A stretch of DNA of 64,000 bases from Patescibacteria group bacterium (GTDB lineage: Bacteria; Patescibacteriota; Patescibacteriia; XYB2-FULL-38-15). The stretch covers positions 299,302 through 363,301 of the forward strand of contig JBAZJZ010000001.1 of NCBI GenBank assembly GCA_041650995.1. The letters are read 5' to 3'. The stretch's first letter is position 1. The number at the start of each line of letters is the position of its first letter. Below are positions 7,850 to 56,867 of the stretch, in pieces. The position numbers and the translations under genes were made by a program. Under the pieces are notes generated by a model. That model had not been told where the DNA came from and searched no databases. It was given only the letters and a program-made list of their open reading frames with translations.

Positions 7850-7965
7850 AAACCTATCTAAATTAGAAATCCCTTATAACTACAGGATATCAGAGAAATT
7901 GAAAAAAATCTATAACTAAGTTTTTGTCAGCTTTTGCCAGAATAATTTATCCACAGGGGGCCCTA

Positions 7966-8124
7966 TTGACGGCGGCCTTTATGGTCCGCTATTATGGACC
8001 TGTAAGATAGGAGTTTGCCTGACGGCGTTCCGATTTATCGGAACTAAGTGAGACGAGGCTACGACTTCTGTCATTAAGCACTACGTGTTTTTTGCTTGAT
8101 GATTAGAAGTGGTAGCCTCTTTTT
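7966..8124 (+). ncRNA. candidate small RNA: sigma70-like promoter (TTGACG-18-TATTAT, 7966-7995) to an intrinsic terminator (gaggctacgacttctg...tagaagtggtagcctc plus T5, 8055-8124)
   Basis: Promoter-like hexamers and a long GC-rich hairpin followed by a T-run in an otherwise AT-rich intergenic region; internal hairpin gttccgatttatcggaac. Confidence 0.3.
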
Positions 8125-8230
8125 ATTTATATAAATTAATTTAATACCCTTCTGAGGCAATCGCCTGGATAGGACATACATTTTGATAAGACGAGATTAG
8201 AGGCTAGCTCCCAGTTGGGGCCAGCCTTTT

Positions 8231-8431
8231 ATGTTGCCCCAAGAAGCAGTCCAACAATTCAAAGAATTATACGAAAAACGCTACGGCGTAAATCTCACTG
8301 ACGAGGAGGCTTCTTTGCGCGCTAACAATCTTTTTAATCTTTATAAAATCACCTATATCGGTGAACCTTCAATAAAAGACTTTAATAAAAAAGTAGTGAA
8401 AAGCCATGACCTCAAACCAAACCATAATTAG
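8231..8431 (+). CDS. hypothetical small protein (66 aa)
   Basis: ORF track only. Confidence 0.3.
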   Translation: MLPQEAVQQFKELYEKRYGVNLTDEEASLRANNLFNLYKITYIGEPSIKDFNKKVVKSHDLKPNHN

Positions 8432-8714
8432 CGAAATCCAATTCTACCCCGTTAAGCCCAAGGACGGACTCCTCGGGTTCGTTTCGTTTGTCCTGGACGG
8501 AAAATTCTGGATGGGGTCAGTGGCAGTATTCAGCAGGCCAGATGGCAATTACAGGTTGGTTTATCCGACACGTAAAGTAGCGGGTCAGAATATTAATATT
8601 TTTCATCCGATCACATATGAGGTCGGCCAACAGGTCGAAGTGGCCGTCAGTGAAAAAGTAGCTGAAATATTTAGTGAAAATTATGGACCAGACGAACCAA
8701 CAAGAAGCGAATGA
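8406..8714 (+). CDS. spoVG: SpoVG-family protein
   Basis: GFVSFVLDGKFWMGSVAVFSRPDGNYRLVYPTRKVAGQNINIFHPITYEVGQQVEVAV matches the SpoVG core (ASITIDNEFVVHDLRVIDG...RTPDGEFRDIAHPIN). Confidence 0.6.
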   Translation: MTSNQTIISEIQFYPVKPKDGLLGFVSFVLDGKFWMGSVAVFSRPDGNYRLVYPTRKVAGQNINIFHPITYEVGQQVEVAVSEKVAEIFSENYGPDEPTRSE

Positions 8715-9117
8715 AAAACATTTTAATTGTTTTTTCACTCCGCATAAAATTTTTGATGATGAAAAATTATGCCGGTCATTGACTCACGCCGAACACGGTT
8801 TTTTTACAGCTTTATGCCATTTACATAACCGTTGTGCTAACAAAGATGGATGGTTCTGGCATGTAGATCATTCTTTTACAGATAAAAACGGAAAGAAACT
8901 GGGATTTGCCACCATGGGTTTTGGCAGTTCAACCTGTAAGAGAGCGCGAATTAAATTAGTCAGACTTAAATTGATAGAAATCAAACCGTATATTACCGAT
9001 GAAAGTACTTGGCCGGCTACAATGTATCGCATTAATCCAAAACTCCTCTACGGTACCGGAGACCAAATTGGTCCACGGTCGAAGACCAATTTGAACTCTG
9101 GCCCGGGACCACCATGA
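8674..9117 (+). CDS. hypothetical protein (147 aa), island cargo
   Basis: ORF track; no recognisable motif. Confidence 0.45.
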   Translation: MKIMDQTNQQEANEKHFNCFFTPHKIFDDEKLCRSLTHAEHGFFTALCHLHNRCANKDGWFWHVDHSFTDKNGKKLGFATMGFGSSTCKRARIKLVRLKLIEIKPYITDESTWPATMYRINPKLLYGTGDQIGPRSKTNLNSGPGPP

Positions 9118-9192
9118 GCCCCTAAGTAATAAAGAGTAAATAATAAAAAATAATTAAGATTGCCTAATTAAGGCGAGCAAGCTCGTAAAAAT

Positions 9193-27256: not shown

Positions 27257-27298
27257 AATTTTTTTATTAATAATTTTTCTACGTAATGTATATTTATC

Positions 27299-27345
27299 AA
27301 AACGGAGAGGGCGAGATTCGGGCTCCTCGGCGCAAGGTCGGCCGC
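27299..27345 (-). repeat. 3'-half pseudo-copy of tRNA-Ser (att-site scar)
   Basis: aaaacggagagggcgagattcg is identical at 27299-27320 and 27417-27438. The homology continues through a variable-arm-like ccttgcgccgagg. Confidence 0.6.
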
Positions 27346-27420
27346 AACGGGCCAGCGGTGTGAGTTCTCATCAAAACCCTCAATTTTTTTCAAATCTGCC
27401 AAAGGGCAAATTTGTAAAAA

Positions 27421-27505
27421 CGGAGAGGGCGAGATTCGAACTCGCGATACCTTGCGGTATGCACGCTTTCCAAGCGTGTGCACTAGGCCACTATGCGACC
27501 TCTCC
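27421..27505 (-). tRNA. tRNA-Ser (anticodon GGA), class II with long variable arm
   Basis: Reverse complement ggagaggtcgcatagtggcctagtgcacacgctTGGAAagcgtgcataccgcaaggtatcgcgagttcgaatctcgccctctccg. Confidence 0.9.
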
Positions 27506-27588
27506 ACATTTTACAATTTTAATCTATTTCTTTATAAAAATCAAACTCCCGCCAATCGCGGCGGGAGTTTTTATCGCTATAAAACCTA

Positions 27589-28338
27589 TTATAAATAGCT
27601 ATCAATAATTTGCTTAAATTGCTCATAAGGAACCGCTCCGCTCACCAACTCTCCGTTCACGAAAGTCGCGGGCGTACCTTCCACTCCGGCGGCTAATCCC
27701 TCTTCTTCTTCAGCGGCAATTTTACTCGCGTATTTTCCGGAATCTAAACATTCATTAAATTTCTTTGTATTCAACCCAAGATTTTTTGCTTCCGCTTTCC
27801 ATTTATCCACGCCCATTGTTCCGGCTTCGTTAGCCGCAAATATTTTATCATACATTTCCCAAAATTTTCCTTGCTCGGCCGCGCATTCTGAAGCTTCAGC
27901 CGCTTTTTGTGCGTTCGCATGGAAAGAAAGCGGATAATGACGAAAAACAACTCTCACCTTATCGCCGTAATTTTCCATAATTTGGTCCGTAGTTTTTTTA
28001 TGGTTTGCGCAATAAGGACATTCAAAATCAGAATATTCAATTAAAGTCACTTTGGCATTTGCGGAACCCTTCACGTGGTCATCAGAAGTCACGGCCGGCA
28101 CTGGGGTATATGACACTTCCGTCGGTTCGTTCGCGACAGGCTGATTAACATTTACTACGGCGTTTGTGTTATTATTTCCATTCTCTTTAGCCAAATTTAT
28201 CCCCTGCCCAGAAAAAGCCAAAGCAAAAAAACCAACTAAGGCGAATGTGCTCATCCCGGCGATTCCGCACATAAGTCCAAGAAAAAAAGATGTTCGCCGC
28301 GTTCCATTTACTAAGTCATTATTCATTTGATCATTCAT
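27589..28338 (-). CDS. DsbA-like thiol:disulfide oxidoreductase (thioredoxin fold, CPYC)
   Basis: FECPYCANH active site; N-terminal TM anchor. Confidence 0.75.
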   Translation of the reverse strand: MNDQMNNDLVNGTRRTSFFLGLMCGIAGMSTFALVGFFALAFSGQGINLAKENGNNNTNAVVNVNQPVANEPTEVSYTPVPAVTSDDHVKGSANAKVTLIEYSDFECPYCANHKKTTDQIMENYGDKVRVVFRHYPLSFHANAQKAAEASECAAEQGKFWEMYDKIFAANEAGTMGVDKWKAEAKNLGLNTKKFNECLDSGKYASKIAAEEEEGLAAGVEGTPATFVNGELVSGAVPYEQFKQIIDSYL

Positions 28339-38078: not shown

Positions 38079-39068
38079 CTAAAATCCAACATACTCCACT
38101 TCTTCCTGCAATTGCACGCCAGTCTCGTCGCGGACTTTCATTTTTACCAAACTCGCGAGGGCAATGACATCAGCCGCCGTCGCGCTCCCCGCGTTCACAA
38201 TAAAATTGGCGTGCTTTTCGGAAATTTTCGCTCCACCGATCCGCTTTCCCTTTAAATCACATTGCTCAATAAACCAAGCAGCGGGAATTTTTCCTTTTTG
38301 AATGTAGTCGGTCGGCACATCTTCGTGCGTATGTTCTTTGATAATTTTTATAATCTCCTCCGTCACTTCCACATTTTTAAAAAAAGATCCGGCGCTTGCA
38401 TCAGTCGGAATTTTCCCGTCCCGCGCCGCGAAAATTTTATCCATCTCTTCTTTAATTTTATTTTTATCACCCGGAACTAATTTAAAAACCACTTTCAAAA
38501 CAATCCCTCCTTCTTTTTTAAAAATACTTTCCCGATAACCAAACTTGCAATCTTCTTTTTTATATTTTTCAACTTTCAATTTTTGATTTAACACTTCAAC
38601 TTCTTCTACCGCGTCACTCGTCGCCTTTCCATACGCTCCGGCATTTCCCCGCACCGCCCCGCCGACCATTCCCGGAATCCCCGCCGCCCATTCCAGTCCG
38701 CTCAAACCATTTTCCGCCGCCGCGTTTACAATTTCCGCGAGTTTCACTCCGGCCTCGACTTCAATTTTAGTGTCTTGTATTTTGTATTTTGTATTTTGTA
38801 TTTTAATTATTAAACCATCAAAACCTATATCCGCGAAAAGCACATTACTTCCGCCACTCAAAACAAAAATTTTCAAACCCAAATCTTTCGCCGCCTTTAC
38901 CGCTTTTACAATTTCCTCAGAATTTTTTGCGACAAAAAAATATCTGGCCGGTCCGCCGATTTTAAAAGTGCAGTGATTGGATAGGGGTTCATTTTCCAAA
39001 ACTTCCTCGCCCAATTTTTCCCGCAATTCTTTAATCATATTTCTAATAAAGTTTACCAAAAATAACAA
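38079..39068 (-). CDS. murB: UDP-N-acetylenolpyruvoylglucosamine reductase
   Basis: FAD-binding N-domain (FKIGGPARYF, SGGSNVLF) and MurB C-terminal domain. Confidence 0.85.
   Translation of the reverse strand: MLFLVNFIRNMIKELREKLGEEVLENEPLSNHCTFKIGGPARYFFVAKNSEEIVKAVKAAKDLGLKIFVLSGGSNVLFADIGFDGLIIKIQNTKYKIQDTKIEVEAGVKLAEIVNAAAENGLSGLEWAAGIPGMVGGAVRGNAGAYGKATSDAVEEVEVLNQKLKVEKYKKEDCKFGYRESIFKKEGGIVLKVVFKLVPGDKNKIKEEMDKIFAARDGKIPTDASAGSFFKNVEVTEEIIKIIKEHTHEDVPTDYIQKGKIPAAWFIEQCDLKGKRIGGAKISEKHANFIVNAGSATAADVIALASLVKMKVRDETGVQLQEEVEYVGF
38777..38804. repeat. (gtatttt)x4 heptanucleotide tandem repeat inside murB
   Basis: Read directly; encodes KIQNTKYKIQDTK in MurB. Confidence 0.8.
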
Positions 39069-39080
39069 GTAAATACAAGA

Positions 39081-39288
39081 CCATCATAACAGCCTAAAGG
39101 CTGTCAGTCCGTTATTGGGGAGTGACACCCTTTAGGGTGTTAATTAAGTCCTCACTAAAGTGAGGAGTCCGTTGAAATTGGAGTCCATTATAACAGCCTA
39201 AAGGCTGTCAGTCCGTTATTGGGGAGTGACACCCTTTAGGGTGTTAATTAAGTCCTCACTAAAGTGAGGAGTCCGTTGAAATTGGAGT
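39081..39288. repeat. 2 x 104-bp tandem duplication (1 mismatch), each unit carrying three short tetraloop hairpins
   Basis: cagccTAAAggctg, acacccTTTAgggtgt, cctcacTAAAgtgagg per unit; a fourth hairpin tcccgacTTTAgtcggga follows at 39290-39307. Confidence 0.85.
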
Positions 39289-39377
39289 CCCGACTTTAGT
39301 CGGGATTTTGTCTTAAATAAAAAAACCCGCACCAGCCGAACTCCAGATGAACCGGAATTGACCGATGCGGGCGTACT

Positions 39378-39803
39378 TCACTCCTTGTCTTCGCGTGGCT
39401 CGCTCTTCGGGAAGAAGGCGAGAATTTTCTTGAGCACCTCCCCTGCCTCTCGTCGGGATTCTTCGTACTGTCTGTCGCTCTGGTCCGGCTTTTTCTCGAG
39501 AACAAACTCACCGCAAGCGGGGCAAAGCCAGCCCACAATAATCGTCTGGACGCGAAAGAGAGGGATCCTCGTAGCCCTGTCCTTGGCCAGAGAGAATTCG
39601 AACATTCCCCCGCCGCATTCATGCGCCTTGTCGGACGGGTTCAGGTTGCAGCGAACGTTTTCTCTGCTTTCGTCGTCAACAGATCCCGCGTAGAGACGAC
39701 GACCGCGCCGAAGAGAAAGATCAGTGCGGCCGGTCAACATGAAGACCAGCCATGTGCTCCAAATACCCACCAAGGCGCCAACCACCAACGAGGTCATGTC
39801 CAT
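39378..39803 (-). CDS. GC-rich small membrane protein with CxxC pair (141 aa), probably horizontally acquired
   Basis: Visibly GC-richer than flanks; TM helix and CGGG...CPAC; own terminator and promoter-like motif. Confidence 0.5.
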   Translation of the reverse strand: MDMTSLVVGALVGIWSTWLVFMLTGRTDLSLRRGRRLYAGSVDDESRENVRCNLNPSDKAHECGGGMFEFSLAKDRATRIPLFRVQTIIVGWLCPACGEFVLEKKPDQSDRQYEESRREAGEVLKKILAFFPKSEPREDKE

Positions 39804-39851
39804 GGGTTTTTCTCTTTCTACCCGAATGCCAATCCACTAACTGACTTTATA

Positions 39852-39880
39852 AACTAACATGATTTTAAAAAATTGTCAAG
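39852..39880 (-). promoter_or_regulatory. conserved 29-bp promoter-like motif (minus sense cTTGACAattttttaaaatcatgtTAGTTt); second copy at 47433-47462
   Basis: Near-identical sequence upstream of two unrelated GC-rich small membrane protein genes; contains TTGACA-17-TAnGTT. Confidence 0.5.
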
Positions 39881-39928
39881 AATTTTAAGCTTGTCTTAAA
39901 TCACAATCTTCTATAAACTTTAAATATC

Positions 39929-40693
39929 ATGAATCATAAAAAACCTGAGTCCGACGATCCGTTGGCCGAAAAAAAATATTCGCCGGTTCGAGGGATTGTC
40001 CATAAATATCCTGACCGCGTGATTTTTTGTCCAACCTTCGCTTGTCCCTCGCGTTGTTCTTTTTGTTTTAGAAAAAATCTTGTTGATGGCAAAAACGGAC
40101 GGCTTTCCGAAAAAGAAATGGCCGCGGCAATTGATTATATTAAAAAAGATAAAAAAATACGCGAGGTAATTTTGTCCGGCGGCGACCCCTTATTTTTGAA
40201 TGATAAAACTTTGTCGGATATTTTAAAAAAACTTCACGCCATTCCGCATGTTCGGCTGCTGCGAATTCACACCCGGATCCCAGTTACTCTACCCTCACGT
40301 GTCACAAAAAAATTAGCGGCCATTTTAAAAAAATCAAAACCGCTTTGGGTTGTTGTTCACATAAATCACCCGAAAGAAATTACGCCGAAATTTAGGGAAG
40401 CCGCCGCCAAATTCAAAGTAGTCGGCATTCCCCTTCTCTCTCAATCGGTTTTACTTCGCGACGTAAACGACAACGCCGAAACTTTAAAAAAATTATTTTA
40501 CGGACTCGTGAAACTCGGTATCAAACCTTATTATCTGCACCAATGTGATCCGGCACGAGGCACAAAAAAATATTGGGTTTCAATAAAAAAAGGTAAAAAA
40601 ATAATGCGCCAATTGCGCAAAGAAATTTCCGGAATTTGTCTTCCGACTTATGTCCAAGACTCGCCTCATTGCGGCAAAACGCCACTATACTAA
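39929..40693 (+). CDS. KamA-family radical SAM protein (lysine 2,3-aminomutase-like, short form)
   Basis: YPDRVIFCPTFACPSRCSFCFR (CxxxCxxC) and GGDPL motifs. Confidence 0.65.
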   Translation: MNHKKPESDDPLAEKKYSPVRGIVHKYPDRVIFCPTFACPSRCSFCFRKNLVDGKNGRLSEKEMAAAIDYIKKDKKIREVILSGGDPLFLNDKTLSDILKKLHAIPHVRLLRIHTRIPVTLPSRVTKKLAAILKKSKPLWVVVHINHPKEITPKFREAAAKFKVVGIPLLSQSVLLRDVNDNAETLKKLFYGLVKLGIKPYYLHQCDPARGTKKYWVSIKKGKKIMRQLRKEISGICLPTYVQDSPHCGKTPLY

Positions 40694-45386: not shown

Positions 45387-45488
45387 CCCTCAACCCTCCT
45401 TCTATCGCTCGTTTCAGGCGAATATAAAATTTTCTAACTTTTTTTGCTTTTTGTCAAGGAGAGATGTAAAATAAAAACACCCATCCTT

Positions 45489-45899
45489 GTCATTCCCGCG
45501 AAAGCGGGAATCCAGTTTTATGAAAAATTATTATGTTTATATAATGACAAACCGACGAAATGGTACGCTATACATTGGAGTAACAAATGATTTAACCCGC
45601 AGAGTTTACGAACACAAACATAATTTAGCAGATGGATTTACTAAAAAGTATAACATACACCTATTGGTGTATTACGAGGGAACGCCCAATGTTGTAAGCT
45701 CTATTCAAAGAGAAAAACAACTCAAGAAATGGAATAGAAAATGGAAACTTGCACTAATTGAAAAAATTAATCCCGAATGGGAAGATTTATATAATAAAAT
45801 AATTCAATGACTACACTCTTTGTCATCCTCAATTTAAAGCCACAAGTGGCCTTGACCCGGAGATCCAGCGATCTGGATTCCCGCTTTCGCGGGAATGAC
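45489..45899. mobile_element. small element with perfect 27-bp terminal inverted repeats carrying a GIY-YIG nuclease gene
   Basis: gtcattcccgcgaaagcgggaatccag (45489-45515) and its exact reverse complement ctggattcccgctttcgcgggaatgac (45873-45899). Confidence 0.65.
45520..45810 (+). CDS. GIY-YIG domain nuclease (UPF0213/URI-like)
   Basis: YYVYIMTNRRNGTLYIGVTNDLTRRVYEH GIY-YIG core. The track ORF start at 45487 would translate the inverted repeat, so the start is more likely the Met at 45520. Confidence 0.7.
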   Translation: MKNYYVYIMTNRRNGTLYIGVTNDLTRRVYEHKHNLADGFTKKYNIHLLVYYEGTPNVVSSIQREKQLKKWNRKWKLALIEKINPEWEDLYNKIIQ

Positions 45900-45913
45900 A
45901 TTGTGGGTCGGGC

Positions 45914-53811: not shown

Positions 53812-54017
53812 TTCAAACATTTTTTGAGGCCACCACCCGACTGAAATTCATGTTAACTAATTTGAGCGGGTGACATTCTCGAAAAATGCGGGGAGTTACT
53901 AAGCATAAACTTTTCACTCCCCCGAGGCTCTGCTTCCTCTGGGCTCACCACTGCGCAGGTGACGCGTTCGGGCGCGGCTGGCGAACGTTGACCTTGCGGT
54001 CAAGCGATGGCAGCTAT

Positions 54018-54191
54018 CTATCTCACGCCTACCTCCTTCTTTTCGCCGAGCAGGAACCGGACGAACTGGTCCAGCTGCGGCTCGTACCGCTGCATGAGCC
54101 GGGCCGTCGCCTGCGGTGTGATCCGGTCGGCGATTCTGACCACAAGTACTGTGGAGACGAGAATCGCCGTGCTAGCGATCTCCCATGCCAT
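54018..54191 (-). CDS. GC-rich small membrane protein (57 aa from MAWEIAS...)
   Basis: RBS agggag; start chosen at the internal Met of the track ORF. Confidence 0.4.
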   Translation of the reverse strand: MAWEIASTAILVSTVLVVRIADRITPQATARLMQRYEPQLDQFVRFLLGEKKEVGVR

Positions 54192-54211
54192 CTTCACAAT
54201 TTTTCTCCCTT

Positions 54212-54493
54212 CTAGCCGATCTTCCGAGGATTTGTTGCGACGAACACCAAGTACGCCGCGACGAGCAGAACGACGTTCAGGAGGACGGCACCGAGATTGG
54301 CGGCCGGTCTCCACCAGGCGTTCGGCAACGCCAGATAGAACTCTCTGTAGATCGTCGCCCCTCCCGCGAGGACAGCCACGATCGTGAACACGAAGGCTCC
54401 ACCTGGAGAACCTTGCGCCCAGCGGAGGATGATCATCGCCCCGAAGGCAACGATCATCACCCAGAACGCGATCGTTCCGATTGCTTCGAGCAT
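54212..54493 (-). CDS. GC-rich small membrane protein (93 aa)
   Basis: ORF track; three TM helices. Confidence 0.45.
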   Translation of the reverse strand: MLEAIGTIAFWVMIVAFGAMIILRWAQGSPGGAFVFTIVAVLAGGATIYREFYLALPNAWWRPAANLGAVLLNVVLLVAAYLVFVATNPRKIG

Positions 54494-54505
54494 CTTCTTC
54501 TCTTT

Positions 54506-54640
54506 CTACCCGCCGAGGACCAGCAAGGTCCCGACGAAAGCGAAAAAGACAATGAACAGAAAAACATTGCCCTCGGCTCCGTCTTCTGCCCCACCGACAA
54601 CCATGAGCCGCCGGCGTTCCAGTTTTTGCACTCCTTTCAT
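54506..54640 (-). CDS. GC-rich small membrane protein (~45 aa, MKGVQKLERRR...)
   Basis: The upstream part of the track ORF is translation of the leader repeat; the start is trimmed to the first Met downstream of the repeat. Confidence 0.35.
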   Translation of the reverse strand: MKGVQKLERRRLMVVGGAEDGAEGNVFLFIVFFAFVGTLLVLGG

Positions 54641-54898
54641 GAGAATGTACAGGTACGCTCCTACCACCAAAACTCCCAATGCCAACCTGAACAATCTCTT
54701 TTCCTCCTTCTTTGAAAGCACCACTTCTCGTGATGCCCTCGAAAAAGGGCGGAACTCATTTTTTAGGTGGGTTCCGCTAACTCGCTTAAGTTGCTCGTCG
54801 CGCATTACTGCGTGATTTCGCAAAACTTTAGCGAGCGCTCAACCTAGGATGGTTGAACTTTCCTGGCATACTTTGGAAGCCAGGACGTTGGGAAGGAA
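54641..54898 (-). repeat. leader repeat unit 1 (homologous to 55286-55586 and 56067-56333)
   Basis: Shared blocks gatgccctcgaaa.agggcggaactcatt..ggtgggttccgct...gcaagccgctcaacctaggatggttgaactttcctggcatactttgg. Confidence 0.8.
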
Positions 54899-55285
54899 CT
54901 ACGAGCAGCCCTCGTCGACCGTGCCGTCGCAGTCGTCATCGACCCTATTGCAGTCCTCTTCGGTCGAGACGAATTGCGACTTGCAGGCAGTCCACTCACG
55001 GTTCAGGCAGGTGCTCATGCCGATTGCGCAAATGCCACGCGCGCCATCCACCGAACAAGTCTGTACCGAACCCTCCGGCACCTCCTCTAGACGGCCGTCC
55101 TCGTAGACGAGGCACCCTCCTTCTACCGCCTCCGTACCCGCCGGCTCGTCGATGATAGGCTGGCTCGTACCGCCGAAATCGAAAGTGTAGTACTGCGAGA
55201 GCCAAGCCGCGAGACCGATGCCGACGAGAATCAATCCCACGACGATCGCCGCGACCTCCGCTCTCTTCGACCTCTGCGTCATCAT
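54899..55285 (-). CDS. GC-rich secreted Cys-rich protein with C-terminal DDDCDGTVDEGC metal-binding-like motif (128 aa)
   Basis: Signal anchor; 10 Cys; RBS aggaaggaagggg. Confidence 0.5.
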   Translation of the reverse strand: MMTQRSKRAEVAAIVVGLILVGIGLAAWLSQYYTFDFGGTSQPIIDEPAGTEAVEGGCLVYEDGRLEEVPEGSVQTCSVDGARGICAIGMSTCLNREWTACKSQFVSTEEDCNRVDDDCDGTVDEGCS

Positions 55286-55586
55286 ATCTCTCCCTCCCCT
55301 TCCTTCCTTGTTTGTTGCCCAATGAAGGGCAGTGTAAAGAACTTTGTCCCGGACACGCGAGATATTCGCGGCCGAGAAACTTTCCTCTCTTCGAGCTCAC
55401 CACTTGCATGATGCCCTCGAAAGAAGGCGGAACTCATTTTTGAGGTGGGTTCCGCTGGAGCTCGCTTGGTTGCTTGTCGCACACTTGCGTGTGAGATTTT
55501 ACAAACCTTTGCAAGCCGCTCAACCTAGGATGGTTGAACTTTCCTGGCATACTTTGGTTTGAATTTGCCAGGACGTTTGGAAGGAG
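55286..55586 (-). repeat. leader repeat unit 2
   Basis: See unit 1. Confidence 0.8.
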
Positions 55587-56066
55587 CTACGAACTGCAGC
55601 CAAGCATCTGCGGCGTCAGCAACAGATTGCCTTCGCCGCCGATCCACGGATGGCGAATCACTGCCGGTTCCACCGAGAGACCGTCAACGGTAACCATGAG
55701 ACGGTCGAGCATGCCCAGATCGCCGTACCAGCGTCCGTCGGTACGTCGAGCATTGACCTCGACGCCTCCCGCGCGACCGCAGGCCTGCGCCTTGGTCAGC
55801 CGCACCTCGAACATGGCCGGCCCGTAGGACACATCTCCGTTCGAGGCATCACCGGGATCGACTGCGTGAAAGATGTAAATCTCGGCCGACTGCTCATCCT
55901 TGGAGTTAATCCGAACCGTCACGGAGTCCCGCTGCTTGTCCGCGCGCTTGTCTGCCAGCAGAGCCAGAAGACCCAAGCTCAACATGCCGAACATGAAAAA
56001 GCAAACCGCACCCACAAGCCACCAATTGCGCCACCAGTTGCTGAGAGCCTTCAGTGCCTTCTTCAT
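55587..56066 (-). CDS. GC-rich membrane-anchored protein (~160 aa from MKKALKALSNWW...)
   Basis: RBS aaggagaag; the longer track ORF (to 56162) runs into the repeat. Confidence 0.45.
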   Translation of the reverse strand: MKKALKALSNWWRNWWLVGAVCFFMFGMLSLGLLALLADKRADKQRDSVTVRINSKDEQSAEIYIFHAVDPGDASNGDVSYGPAMFEVRLTKAQACGRAGGVEVNARRTDGRWYGDLGMLDRLMVTVDGLSVEPAVIRHPWIGGEGNLLLTPQMLGCSS

Positions 56067-56333
56067 CTTCTTCTCCTTTTTCCTTCCTTGTTGTAAAGAA
56101 CTTTGTCCCGGACACGCGATGATTCGCGCGCCGAGAAAACTTCCTCTCTTCGAAAGTACCACTTTCGTGATGCCCTCGAAAAAGGGCGGAACTCATTGTG
56201 GTGGGTTCCGCTAAACTTGCTTGGTTGCTTGTCGCACATTACTGTATGATTTTGCAAAACCTTGCAAGCCGCTCAACCTAGGATGGTTGAACTTTCCTGG
56301 CATACTTTGGAAGCCAGGACGTTGGGAAGGAAG
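56067..56333 (-). repeat. leader repeat unit 3
   Basis: See unit 1. Confidence 0.8.
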
Positions 56334-56693
56334 CTATGGCACACATTCGCAGATGCCGTAGTCACAGTAGCCAAACTTCTCTCTGCAAGAATTCCGGCAC
56401 TCTTCATCCCTGCAGAATCTCTCATCGTTCAGGTCGCACCGTTCGCCGATGCCATCATTGTCCGCATCGAACTGGTCGGGGTTAGGATCAATAGGACAGT
56501 TGTCCCAACGATCTGGAATCTTGTCGCCATCCTGATCCTTTATCATGACCGGCTGAACAACCACGCCCCGCCAGTGGAGAGAAGCCGCTCGGGAAACTTC
56601 CAGGCAAAAACCGCGCAACGCGCAGAAAAACGTGAAAACGACGAACGTGAACGACGCTACCGTGATTACTGTCCTTGCCACTTTTCCATTCAT
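56334..56693 (-). CDS. GC-rich secreted protein with thrombospondin-type-3-like Asp-rich Ca-binding repeats and Cys-rich C-terminus (119 aa)
   Basis: DKIPDRWDNCPIDPNPDQFDADNDGIGERCDLNDE; signal peptide. Confidence 0.5.
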   Translation of the reverse strand: MNGKVARTVITVASFTFVVFTFFCALRGFCLEVSRAASLHWRGVVVQPVMIKDQDGDKIPDRWDNCPIDPNPDQFDADNDGIGERCDLNDERFCRDEECRNSCREKFGYCDYGICECVP

Positions 56694-56786
56694 TATGTTT
56701 TTACTTCCTTATTTCATCCGCCAAAGGCGGACTGGTCAATGAACTATTCCCTTGTCGCACCATGCGGTTTAGGAAATCTCTTCAGT

Positions 56787-56867
56787 GGCGCTGGTGGGAA
56801 TTGAACCCACTCTGACCCGGTCGACCCTTGCGGGCTCTCTCCTTGAGACTTTTTGACCGGCAGCGCC
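56787..56867 (-). other. tRNA-like element (T-arm gtgggttcaattcccac plus 7-bp acceptor-like stem ggcgctg/cagcgcc) lacking a normal D/anticodon arm
   Basis: Minus-sense ggcgctgccggtcaaaaagtctcaaggagagagcccgcaagggtcgaccgggtcagagtgggttcaattcccaccagcgcc-a; a second long-range stem ccggtc/gaccgg replaces the D/anticodon region. Confidence 0.3.

Follow-up and report, generated by a model that had tools for sequence, protein, structure and literature searches.

The DNA analysed here, called the window throughout, is a 64,000-nt stretch of a Patescibacteria genome that contains an array of hairpins upstream of murB, a gene encoded on the minus strand (ATG at 39038 to 38079). Along the minus strand, the order is murC, a radical-SAM gene (itself on the plus strand), an ORF of 141 aa, a terminator-like hairpin, the array and murB. 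The MurB protein is 100% identical to MFA5128702.1 and the product of the 141-aa ORF is 100% identical to MFA5128703.1 (locus tag WC445_01915). The 141-aa ORF (39378–39803, minus strand) is a GC-rich (56–58%) orphan with an N-terminal hydrophobic, probably transmembrane, segment and scattered Cys and His residues; it has no Pfam match, and it shares neither DNA nor protein similarity with the GC-rich block at 54–57 kb. The ORF ends at an intrinsic-terminator-like hairpin (39319–39371, minus strand) with the stem CCCGCA...TGCGGG followed by T7, and the hairpin cluster begins 13 nt downstream of it. The consensus scan did not list this terminator-like hairpin on account of its long loop. Directly downstream of the cluster lies the putative native promoter of murB, TTGTAT and TGGTAAACT separated by 17 nt (39050–39078, minus strand), which is conserved in two relatives that lack the hairpins (L059 and L061). 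The ORF coordinates agree with the location given in the initial annotation, which had placed the array between murB and the GC-rich gene.

Tandem Repeats Finder described positions 39081–39290 as a repeat of period 104 with 2.0 copies and 99% matches, confirming the two 104-bp units with one mismatch that had been noticed before; the lone difference between the units is a C at 39085 against a T at 39189. The unit nearest to murB (39081–39184) contains the hairpins h1a, h2a and h3a and then a spacer with a GGAGT tag that lacks a hairpin. The second unit (39185–39288) differs from the first at 39189 only and is missing in an otherwise identical assembly (L001, see below). A scan for perfect hairpins located ACAGCC-TAAA-GGCTGT (h1) at 39089–39104 and 39193–39208, ACACCC-TTTA-GGGTGT (h2) at 39125–39140 and 39229–39244, TCCTCAC-TAAA-GTGAGGA (h3) at 39149–39166 and 39253–39270, and a single copy of TCCCGAC-TTTA-GTCGGGA (h4) at 39288–39305. 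These seven perfect hairpins with TAAA or TTTA loops are as first described, except that two of the stems are one pair longer. Among the perfect hairpins with such loops and stems of at least 6 bp, seven out of the eight in the 64-kb window fall within the 217 nt of the array, whereas 300 first-order Markov simulations of 64 kb gave 0.65 on average and never more than 3. The clustering of the hairpins is far beyond chance and the duplication is non-random.

The array also folds very stably, as was seen when the proposed check of folding it as single-stranded DNA and as RNA was carried out: the z-scores against shuffles ranged from about -7 to -11 on both strands (-10.9 and -10.4 for the two strands as RNA, -9.0 and -7.2 as DNA). 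In the minimum-energy folds of both DNA and RNA, h1 pairs with h2 to form a single long hairpin, and h3 and h4 remain separate. A single flipped base pair, ACA[C/G]CC...GG[G/C]TGT, separates h1 from the reverse complement of h2, and h3 differs from the reverse complement of h4 at two compensated pairs, so that each of the small hairpins is preserved. The h1-h2 and h3-h4 spacers are homologous to each other (AGTCCGTT..ATTGG..GAGT).

Among 36 hairpins taken from the window and six other loci, nearly all, once oriented to give a TTTA loop, have GGA(G/C)T or a motif close to it 0–2 nt before the stem; in the window, the tags are GGAGTG, GGACTG, GGAG(T) and GGAC(T). With this reading direction, the order of orientations along the plus strand is - + - - + - +, and the TAAA and TTTA loops alternate because the orientation of the repetitive extragenic palindromic (REP) elements alternates, as in BIMEs. 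The arrangement had been called designed rather than random: its non-randomness holds, whereas its regularity simply reflects alternating REP orientation. The h1/h2 and h3/h4 pairs are head-to-head inverted doublets with a conserved spacer, ...CTCC..AAT..AACGGACT....

Two types of REPs can be distinguished by their stems. Type A comprises h1a (39089–39110, minus strand; tag GGACTG followed by ACAGCC-TTTA-GGCTGT) and h2a (39119–39140, plus strand; tag GGAGTG followed by ACACCC-TTTA-GGGTGT), which stand head to head and can fold REPIN-like as one long hairpin. Type B is represented by h3a (39149–39170, minus strand; GGAC followed by TCCTCAC-TTTA-GTGAGGA). It is followed by the head-to-head spacer GTTGAAATT and the orphan tag GGAGT without a hairpin (39171–39184, plus strand), which together form the junction of the duplication. 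In the second unit, the type A REPs h1b (39193–39214, minus strand) and h2b (39223–39244, plus strand), each again consisting of hairpin and tag, precede the type B REP h3b (39253–39274, minus strand), which faces h4 across the same spacer. The REP h4 (39284–39305, plus strand), also of type B, consists of the tag GGAG and TCCCGAC-TTTA-GTCGGGA.

REPs have been defined as palindromes of 20–50 nt that follow a conserved tetranucleotide, BIMEs as inverted REPs that are often arranged in tandem, and tnpAREP as a single-copy gene flanked by REPs (PMC8266576, PMC3333891). Head-to-head REP heterodimers with conserved spacers are common (PMC3733652), and REP doublets have been described as REPINs (PMC3116915). 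The elements of the window are stem-loops of 21–22 nt, each consisting of a tag, a perfect stem of 6–7 bp and a 4-nt loop, with GGA(G/C)T as the conserved motif directly 5' of the palindrome. The canonical GTAG tag was not found in the window REPs, but it is the motif present "most often" and is not obligatory (PMC8266576); two related contigs (L015 and L062) carry the tag GGAGTA-G, which includes GTAG. The cluster is extragenic, with the terminator of the 141-aa ORF on one side and the murB promoter-like region on the other, and REPs are likewise intergenic in the related loci L006, L015, L025, L032 and L052. They are also dispersed in the genome under study: the window cluster, the flanks of the REPtron described below (L069, 9858–10709) and a further doublet (L069, 3613–3654) make up three loci in the approximately 84 kb examined, whereas no additional copy was found in the 64-kb window either with up to 3 mismatches or by a loose hairpin scan. 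REPs usually number tens to hundreds per genome. As in BIMEs, REPs alternate with inverted REPs, the 104-bp unit being present twice in tandem here and once in L001. We thus consider it very likely, with a probability of about 0.9, that the hairpins are REP elements in a BIME-like cluster, part of a REP/RAYT system of a Patescibacteria (CPR) bacterium.

The same genome encodes a candidate partner for these elements. The 192-aa protein MFA5128349.1 (P0294), whose gene is located on a contig of the same 567,161-bp length as the one with murB (MFA5128702.1), scores 100.5 bits against the NCBIfam model of the REP-associated tyrosine transposase (NF047646; equivalog cut-off, 80 bits). Its accession number is 353 numbers away from that of the MurB entry. 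Its sole sequence match in PDB is TnpAREP of E. coli (4ER8), where the NHYH and YIHQNPVKHG segments of MFA5128349.1 align with HMH and YIYINPVKHG, that is, with the HUH motif and with the catalytic tyrosine in its Y-I-x-x-N-P context. The protein is thus both above the model cut-off and in possession of the two motifs expected of a RAYT. The RAYT locus L069, which shares its ENA sample with the twin contig of the window, has the RAYT gene flanked on both sides by doublets of ACAGCC-TTTA-GGCTGT and ACACGC-TAAA-GCGTGT with the spacer CACTCC-CAATAA-ACGGACTG, and another doublet is found in L069 6 kb from the RAYT gene. By comparison of the sequences, the flanking doublet is the h2/h1 doublet of the window, including the spacer and the TTAYRAT tail, and the REP h1a itself recurs there. 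An own-genome RAYT gene with type A doublets on both sides corresponds to a REPtron. Accordingly, the earlier proposal of an array of protein-binding hairpins or a recombination-related site appears to have been essentially right, the REPs being the predicted single-stranded DNA substrates of the RAYT of their own genome, which they flank.

Type A REPs (ACAGCC/ACACCC stems) are predicted to be cognate to the own-genome RAYT, and type B REPs (CCTCAC/CCCGAC stems) to the RAYT of sister lineages. REPs identical to h3a flank RAYT genes in L025, L032, L052, L054 and L065, and the CCCGAC-TTTA-GTCGGG REP of h4 flanks RAYT genes of sister lineages, whereas no type B REPs were seen beside the own-genome RAYT. 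Since type A flanks its own RAYT and type B that of sister lineages, the window cluster appears to be a mosaic of two REP types.

We searched public sequence collections for other doublets with the pattern CTAAAG-N-AGTCCGTT-N-CTTTAG. Most of the matches in genomes and metagenomes lack stems and are due to chance, and among the viral contigs none of six matches to the doublet pattern has stems. Both cores lie in perfect stems in L006, L012/L015, L025 and L032, and less clearly so in L037 and L039; L006, L015, L025 and L032 are Patescibacteria-like contigs. For example, the h3/h4 doublet is found nearly unchanged at unrelated loci, such as 3' of gatA in L006, an 886-kb chromosome (OZ246416.1) whose MurB is 79% identical to that of the window. 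The REP cluster is the sole DNA similarity between the window and these loci of relatives, which contain many more such hairpins in their intergenic gaps, including 37-nt and 57-nt tandem arrays in L032 and L039. The hairpins flank an ORF of 177–182 aa in L025, L032, L039, L052, L054 and L065, and they do so on both sides in L025, L032 and L039. Those of the ORFs that were scored reach 95–106 bits against NF047646; the ORFs from L025, L032 and L039 pass the cut-off of 80 and match Pfam Y1_Tnp, and the RAYT assignments in L052 and L054 are based on Pfam Y1_Tnp only. A protein search returned named relatives of the RAYT from Patescibacteria, Buchananbacteria, Paceibacterota and Falkowbacteria.

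The genomic neighbourhood of the RAYT gene is also conserved. The gene order GHL15, GT4, sigma-70, DUF5667, large protein, RAYT, TPR and Big_1 is shared by L052, L054, L062, L064–L068 and L069; in L052, L054/L055 and L064–L068, the RAYT gene in this neighbourhood is flanked by CCCGAC/CCTCAC REPs, which correspond to h4 and h3 of the window. Being syntenic in at least six related contigs, the RAYT locus behaves as a single-copy, vertically inherited gene, where single-copy refers to the synteny of the locus across the contigs compared. It should be noted that the RAYT locus L065 was considered as a part of the same MAG as the window and rejected, as the accession numbers are about 284,000 apart and thus belong to a different MAG.

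The number of units at the murB locus varies. An independent assembly from the same population (L001/L002; ENA ERZ27247363, k141_2401970) is 100% identical to the window over positions 28079–49803 (21.7 kb) but contains one unit instead of two; two apparent mismatches between L001/L002 and the window are an alignment overhang at the repeat. Unit numbers of one in L001 and two in the window point to the variation in copy number that is typical of BIMEs, and support the recent expansion postulated in the initial annotation. The two-unit allele is recognized by the junction TTATAATGG|ACTCCAATTT and the distinguishing base, both of which are lacking in the one-unit version. The sequence of the unit-unit junction can also be written as TTATAATGGACTCCAATTTC, or as TTATAATGG|ACTCCAATTTC, and the one-unit allele reads GTCGGG|ACTCC...TTATGATGG|TCTTG inside one 104-bp span. 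From these comparisons, the 104-bp duplication appears to be polymorphic in the natural population.

A possible mechanism can be proposed from the systems studied in E. coli, Stenotrophomonas and Marinomonas. At a stage when the DNA is single-stranded, for instance at the replication fork, the RAYT would recognize and bind, on one of the strands, the folded REP and the tag 5' of it. The enzyme, an HUH protein with a single catalytic tyrosine, would then cut nearby, form a 5'-phosphotyrosine link and transfer strands. Such transfer could spread doublets to new intergenic sites, and local amplification could give rise to tandem units. Binding of the folded single-stranded REP by RAYT/TnpAREP, variation in BIME number and a model of RAYT-based amplification have all been reported (PMC3333891, PMC8266576). 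The 104-bp duplication would represent one event of local amplification, or else unequal recombination or slippage between REPs. The latter scenario, with true REPs whose duplication and polymorphism arose by slippage or unequal homologous recombination and not by RAYT amplification, has in our estimate a little less than even odds. It is consistent with the 2-nt microhomology shared by the unit boundaries (GG|ACTCC and GG|TCTTG) and with the ability of recombination to remove one of two 104-bp direct repeats, and RAYT-catalysed amplification at this locus is itself a proposal by analogy. On the other hand, one of the boundaries lies exactly at the foot of REP h4, between the stem and the tag, which would fit REP-associated cleavage, and tandem amplification of BIMEs is recurrent in REP/RAYT systems, for which a RAYT-based model has been proposed (PMC3333891). 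The observations are compatible both with RAYT amplification and with slippage or recombination.

It is improbable that the second unit is an assembly artefact at a locus that truly has one unit, with no biological duplication. Tandem repeats are a classic source of assembly errors, and the same-population assembly with its single unit could be taken in this sense. However, an assembler cannot create the junction TTATAATGG|ACTCCAATTT and the variant base without reads. Moreover, the 104-bp unit is shorter than the k of 141, so a MEGAHIT contig should not collapse a true duplication, and a real second copy should survive in it; both versions are therefore probably real, and we regard the one-unit and two-unit versions as probable alleles. 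A further contig (L070; Logan SRR8542065) is 100% identical to the window and terminates once it has covered exactly 30 nt of the shared unit start. With the k=31 used by Logan, this stop would be a graph branch point if two different sequences enter the unit; a REP copy elsewhere could equally cause the branch. The initial annotation had held that a single copy in the reads would expose an artefact: a one-unit version does exist in L001, but the element is no artefact for that.

Comparison of the murB regions suggests how the cluster came to its place. In L059 and L061, whose MurB proteins are 79% and 85% identical to that of the window, the gap between the radical-SAM gene and murB is only 81 nt, and in the window this gap is filled by the REP cluster together with the 141-aa ORF. 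The relatives L057 and L058 have a different GC-rich ORF at this spot, without REPs. A sequence TCTTGTATTT...TG(G/T)TAAA(C/A)T...ATG is common to the window and the relatives, and in the window it begins at the end of the array (39078). As the 5' sequence of murB that is shared with the relatives starts where the array ends, the native promoter-like region appears to be intact and downstream of the array. The cluster and the GC-rich orphan gene thus seem to have been inserted upstream of it. A role in murB expression is not needed to explain the presence of the cluster. The search of the genome and its relatives that had been suggested earlier thus recovered doublets at unrelated loci and at RAYT flanks, and none at the orthologous region upstream of murB in L059, L061, L057 or L058.

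These observations leave only a very slim chance for a structured non-coding RNA, a possibility also raised by the initial annotation, or for a leader that regulates murB in cis, and we consider this reading as already largely refuted. The position between a terminator and the start of murB, the very stable RNA folding on both strands and the compensatory changes in the stems would all suit such an RNA. In contrast, with the murB promoter-like sequence downstream of the array, the array would be outside the murB transcript; relatives with MurB proteins of 79–85% identity are entirely without it; copies of the doublet are found at unrelated loci, where they face the opposite way with respect to the neighbouring genes; and hairpins occupy both sides of a transposase gene. 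A search of the whole window against Rfam 15 at the gathering score gave no match at the array, and no family matched the locus even at E≤10, where the best sub-threshold hit had 22 bits against a required 60.

A reading of the palindromes as duplex operators, bound by dimeric transcription factors that regulate murB or the GC-rich gene, has a practically negligible chance: the sites are palindromic, lie in a promoter-proximal intergenic region and include GGAGTCC direct repeats about 16–20 nt apart, but the four different stems share only the loop and the tag while keeping their palindromy by compensation, which argues for selection on a folded single strand and against a sequence recognized by one factor, and the sites are absent from the orthologous promoters and flank RAYT genes.

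Several other candidate assignments were rejected. A CRISPR array does not fit, as the whole 104-bp unit repeats without unique spacers and the match to CRISPR-DR58 is weak (18.5 bits against a gathering score of 38). The hairpins are not intrinsic terminators, since none of the seven is followed by a run of five or more T residues (h4 has TTTT before a G) and the scan found no terminators there. An IS200/IS605 insertion sequence was dismissed because the RAYTs score 16–26 bits against NF033573, for which the cut-off is 55; the 64-kb window contains no transposase gene. The elements TGTTATAAT / TGTTATGAT on the minus strand, considered as a promoter created by the repeat, were rejected as the main point: TTAYRAT is the conserved tail linker of type A REPs in the REPtron, and the promoter-like sequence common to the window and the relatives lies downstream of the array. 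The tRNA/tmRNA scan found nothing at the locus, and the scan for promoter and terminator consensus sequences found nothing within the array.

To our knowledge, research on REP/RAYT systems has dealt almost entirely with Proteobacteria and to some extent with Cyanobacteria and Bacteroidetes. The REPIN/RAYT literature that we searched contains no mention of Patescibacteria, the top-ranked Patescibacteria literature does not contain the term "repetitive extragenic palindromic", and in a 2026 preprint a RAYT is noted for an archaeon only. Elements of this kind are well known, but their occurrence in Patescibacteria seems to be undescribed. Taken together, the RAYT gene, syntenic and in single copy, the tagged hairpins predicted to be cognate to it, the doublets scattered over several loci and the tandem cluster with its polymorphism make up what is very likely a complete system in a streamlined genome (probably of about 1 Mb), and indicate that even CPR bacteria keep a domesticated transposase and its repeats. 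The very small perfect REPs with a TTTA loop and a GGAST tag offer a simple substrate for testing hairpin recognition by a RAYT. For annotation, such hairpin arrays in CPR MAGs would be recorded as REPs and not as ncRNAs or CRISPR remnants, with the caution that assemblies break or differ in copy number at REP arrays. A more far-reaching scenario is speculative and, taken as a whole, rather doubtful: that a domesticated REP/RAYT system is still live in this ultra-small, streamlined genome, with the non-GTAG tag GGAST, minimal TTTA hairpins of 6–7 bp and REP types of different RAYT lineages in one mosaic cluster; that its clusters are being amplified or contracted within a natural population, as the one-unit and two-unit alleles of otherwise identical genomes would show; and that the cluster may have been co-opted as a buffer which separates the promoter of the essential murB gene from a GC-rich gene of recent acquisition.

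Among the characterized systems, the REP/BIME elements and RAYT REPtron of E. coli K-12 (PMC3333891, PMC3479197, PMC8266576) share with the system described here tagged short extragenic palindromes, the alternation of REPs and inverted REPs with linkers, tandem clusters whose copy number varies between strains and a Y1/HUH transposase gene that is syntenic, present in one copy and bordered by REPs of the same kind. Unlike E. coli K-12, the host is a bacterium with an ultra-small Patescibacteria genome, the tag is GGA(G/C)T and not GTAG, the stems are perfect, very short (6–7 bp) and free of bulges, the tetraloop is always TTTA, the density is low (three loci in the approximately 84 kb examined), and two REP types with different predicted cognate RAYT lineages are combined in one cluster. 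Short perfect palindromes with a 5' tag and head-to-head dimers are also typical of the Group 3/subclass 2.5 REPs of Pseudomonas, Stenotrophomonas and Marinomonas Mb (PMC8266576). Subclass 2.5 RAYTs have the motifs DH[LF]H and YI[VI]ANP, in contrast to NHYH ... YIHQNP in the RAYTs of 177–192 aa found here, which by motif comparison only resemble subclasses 2.6/2.8 (table in PMC6006769).

Similar to the REPINs of Pseudomonas fluorescens SBW25 (PMC3116915, PMC3337134), the window doublets are inverted REP pairs with a conserved spacer, h1/h2 forms one long hairpin, and the same doublets occur at unrelated loci, whereas h3/h4, unlike REPINs, folds as two separate hairpins. The GTAG/CGTC-tagged REP superfamilies likewise include tagged palindromes and head-to-head heterodimers with differing stems, whose conserved spacers sometimes contain a small stem-loop (PMC3733652), but the window tags GGAGTG, GGACTG, GGAGT and GGACT fit neither consensus. 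Compared with the IS200/IS605 family, the system described here has in common a tag 5' of the hairpin foot and a Y1 HUH enzyme, here a predicted one. In IS200/IS605 elements, the Y1 HUH enzyme recognizes the subterminal hairpins in single-stranded form, and a guide or tag sequence precedes the foot of the hairpin on its 5' side. Unlike in these elements, the enzyme of the patescibacterial system, with 19.6–25.9 bits, falls below the IS200 model cut-off of 55, its gene is single-copy and syntenic, and the hairpins are dispersed without the gene.

Hairpins of the REP type recur at the RAYT (REP-associated tyrosine transposase) loci of related genomes. The syntenic RAYT gene at locus L062 (9790–10620), from a relative whose MurB is 82% identical, is frameshifted: its ORF spans 155 aa, and the C-terminal portion continues in a different frame. 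Its upstream flank carries hairpins that are tagged GGAGTA and possess the tetraloops GTAA, GCAA and TCAC, not TTTA. At the RAYT locus of the window's own genome (L069, 10050–10065) and on the related contig L054 (10124–10141), REP-like hairpins were found within the annotated RAYT coding sequence itself, with the tag's complement (CACTCC or CTCC) directly after them. For subclass 2.4, REPs inserted in tnpAREP genes are described in PMC6006769. The most amplified BIME-like array among the loci examined belongs to the related contig L039 (1919–3307), in which a RAYT gene has tandem arrays of 57-nt units on either side, 12 copies in total, and each unit is composed of two hairpins, ACCC-TAAA-GGGT and AAGGC-TTTA-GCCTT. 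REP doublets were also identified on a related contig with a ribosomal-protein operon (L015, 1–10279), whose unusually wide intergenic gaps of 200–400 nt are packed with these doublets (stems GCGAGC, GCGGAG and GCGGGC) and with 97-nt AT-rich repeats.

The window's only other TTTA-loop hairpin whose stem reaches 6 bp or more, GTTCCGA-TTTA-TCGGAAC at 8027–8044, lacks the GGAST tag that marks the window's REPs. It lies in a stretch of 1.3 kb (7850–9190) without ORFs of at least 150 aa, which is long for this genome; a terminator-like hairpin is located near 8060–8125, and no Rfam matches were identified in the stretch at E ≤ 0.1.

The REP cluster of the window lies in the gap that separates murB from the radical-SAM gene and is only 81 nt long in two relatives (L059, 5919–6001). 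In the window, the part of this gap at 39378–39928 holds a GC-rich 141-aa ORF, and in the relatives L057 and L058 (L057, 5558–5887) it holds an unrelated GC-rich ORF of 102–109 aa. Both gap ORFs encode a hydrophobic, probably transmembrane, segment. The gap seems to be a hot spot where small foreign genes insert. Small GC-rich ORFs with hydrophobic, probably transmembrane, N-termini are also present on the minus strand of a block at 53900–56800, where GC content is 56–58% vs. a background of ~41%. The block is composed of three ~700-bp units with common conserved segments of 48–109 nt and resembles an array of small-gene cassettes that were acquired. The block shows no similarity to the 141-aa ORF beside the REPs.

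Within the murB coding sequence, there is a perfect 7-nt repeat, TTGTATT × 4.3 (38775–38804), which encodes the peptide KIQNTKYKIQ. Since this peptide is conserved in the closest relatives, the repeat belongs to the native coding sequence, and a one-unit slippage would throw murB out of frame. An independent Logan contig from SRR8542065 (L070, 1–1352) is 100% identical to window positions 40612–39261 and breaks off after precisely 30 nt of the start that the 104-bp units share, the break point expected for a repeat in a graph with k=31, the value used by Logan.

Elsewhere in the window, perfect 28-nt inverted repeats (TGTCATTCCCGCGAAAGCGGGAATCCAG; 45488–45515 and 45873–45900) lie on either side of a small GIY-YIG ORF that demonstrates 57% identity to one in the chromosome OZ246416.1 (L006). 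The positions of GIY-YIG ORFs differ among the relatives (L001, L057 and L069), suggesting that the element is mobile. Finally, a partial copy of the 3' end of a tRNA-Ser gene (27292–27325 vs. 27410–27443, 88% identity) is located 118 nt away from that gene (27420–27506) and may represent an integration-site remnant.
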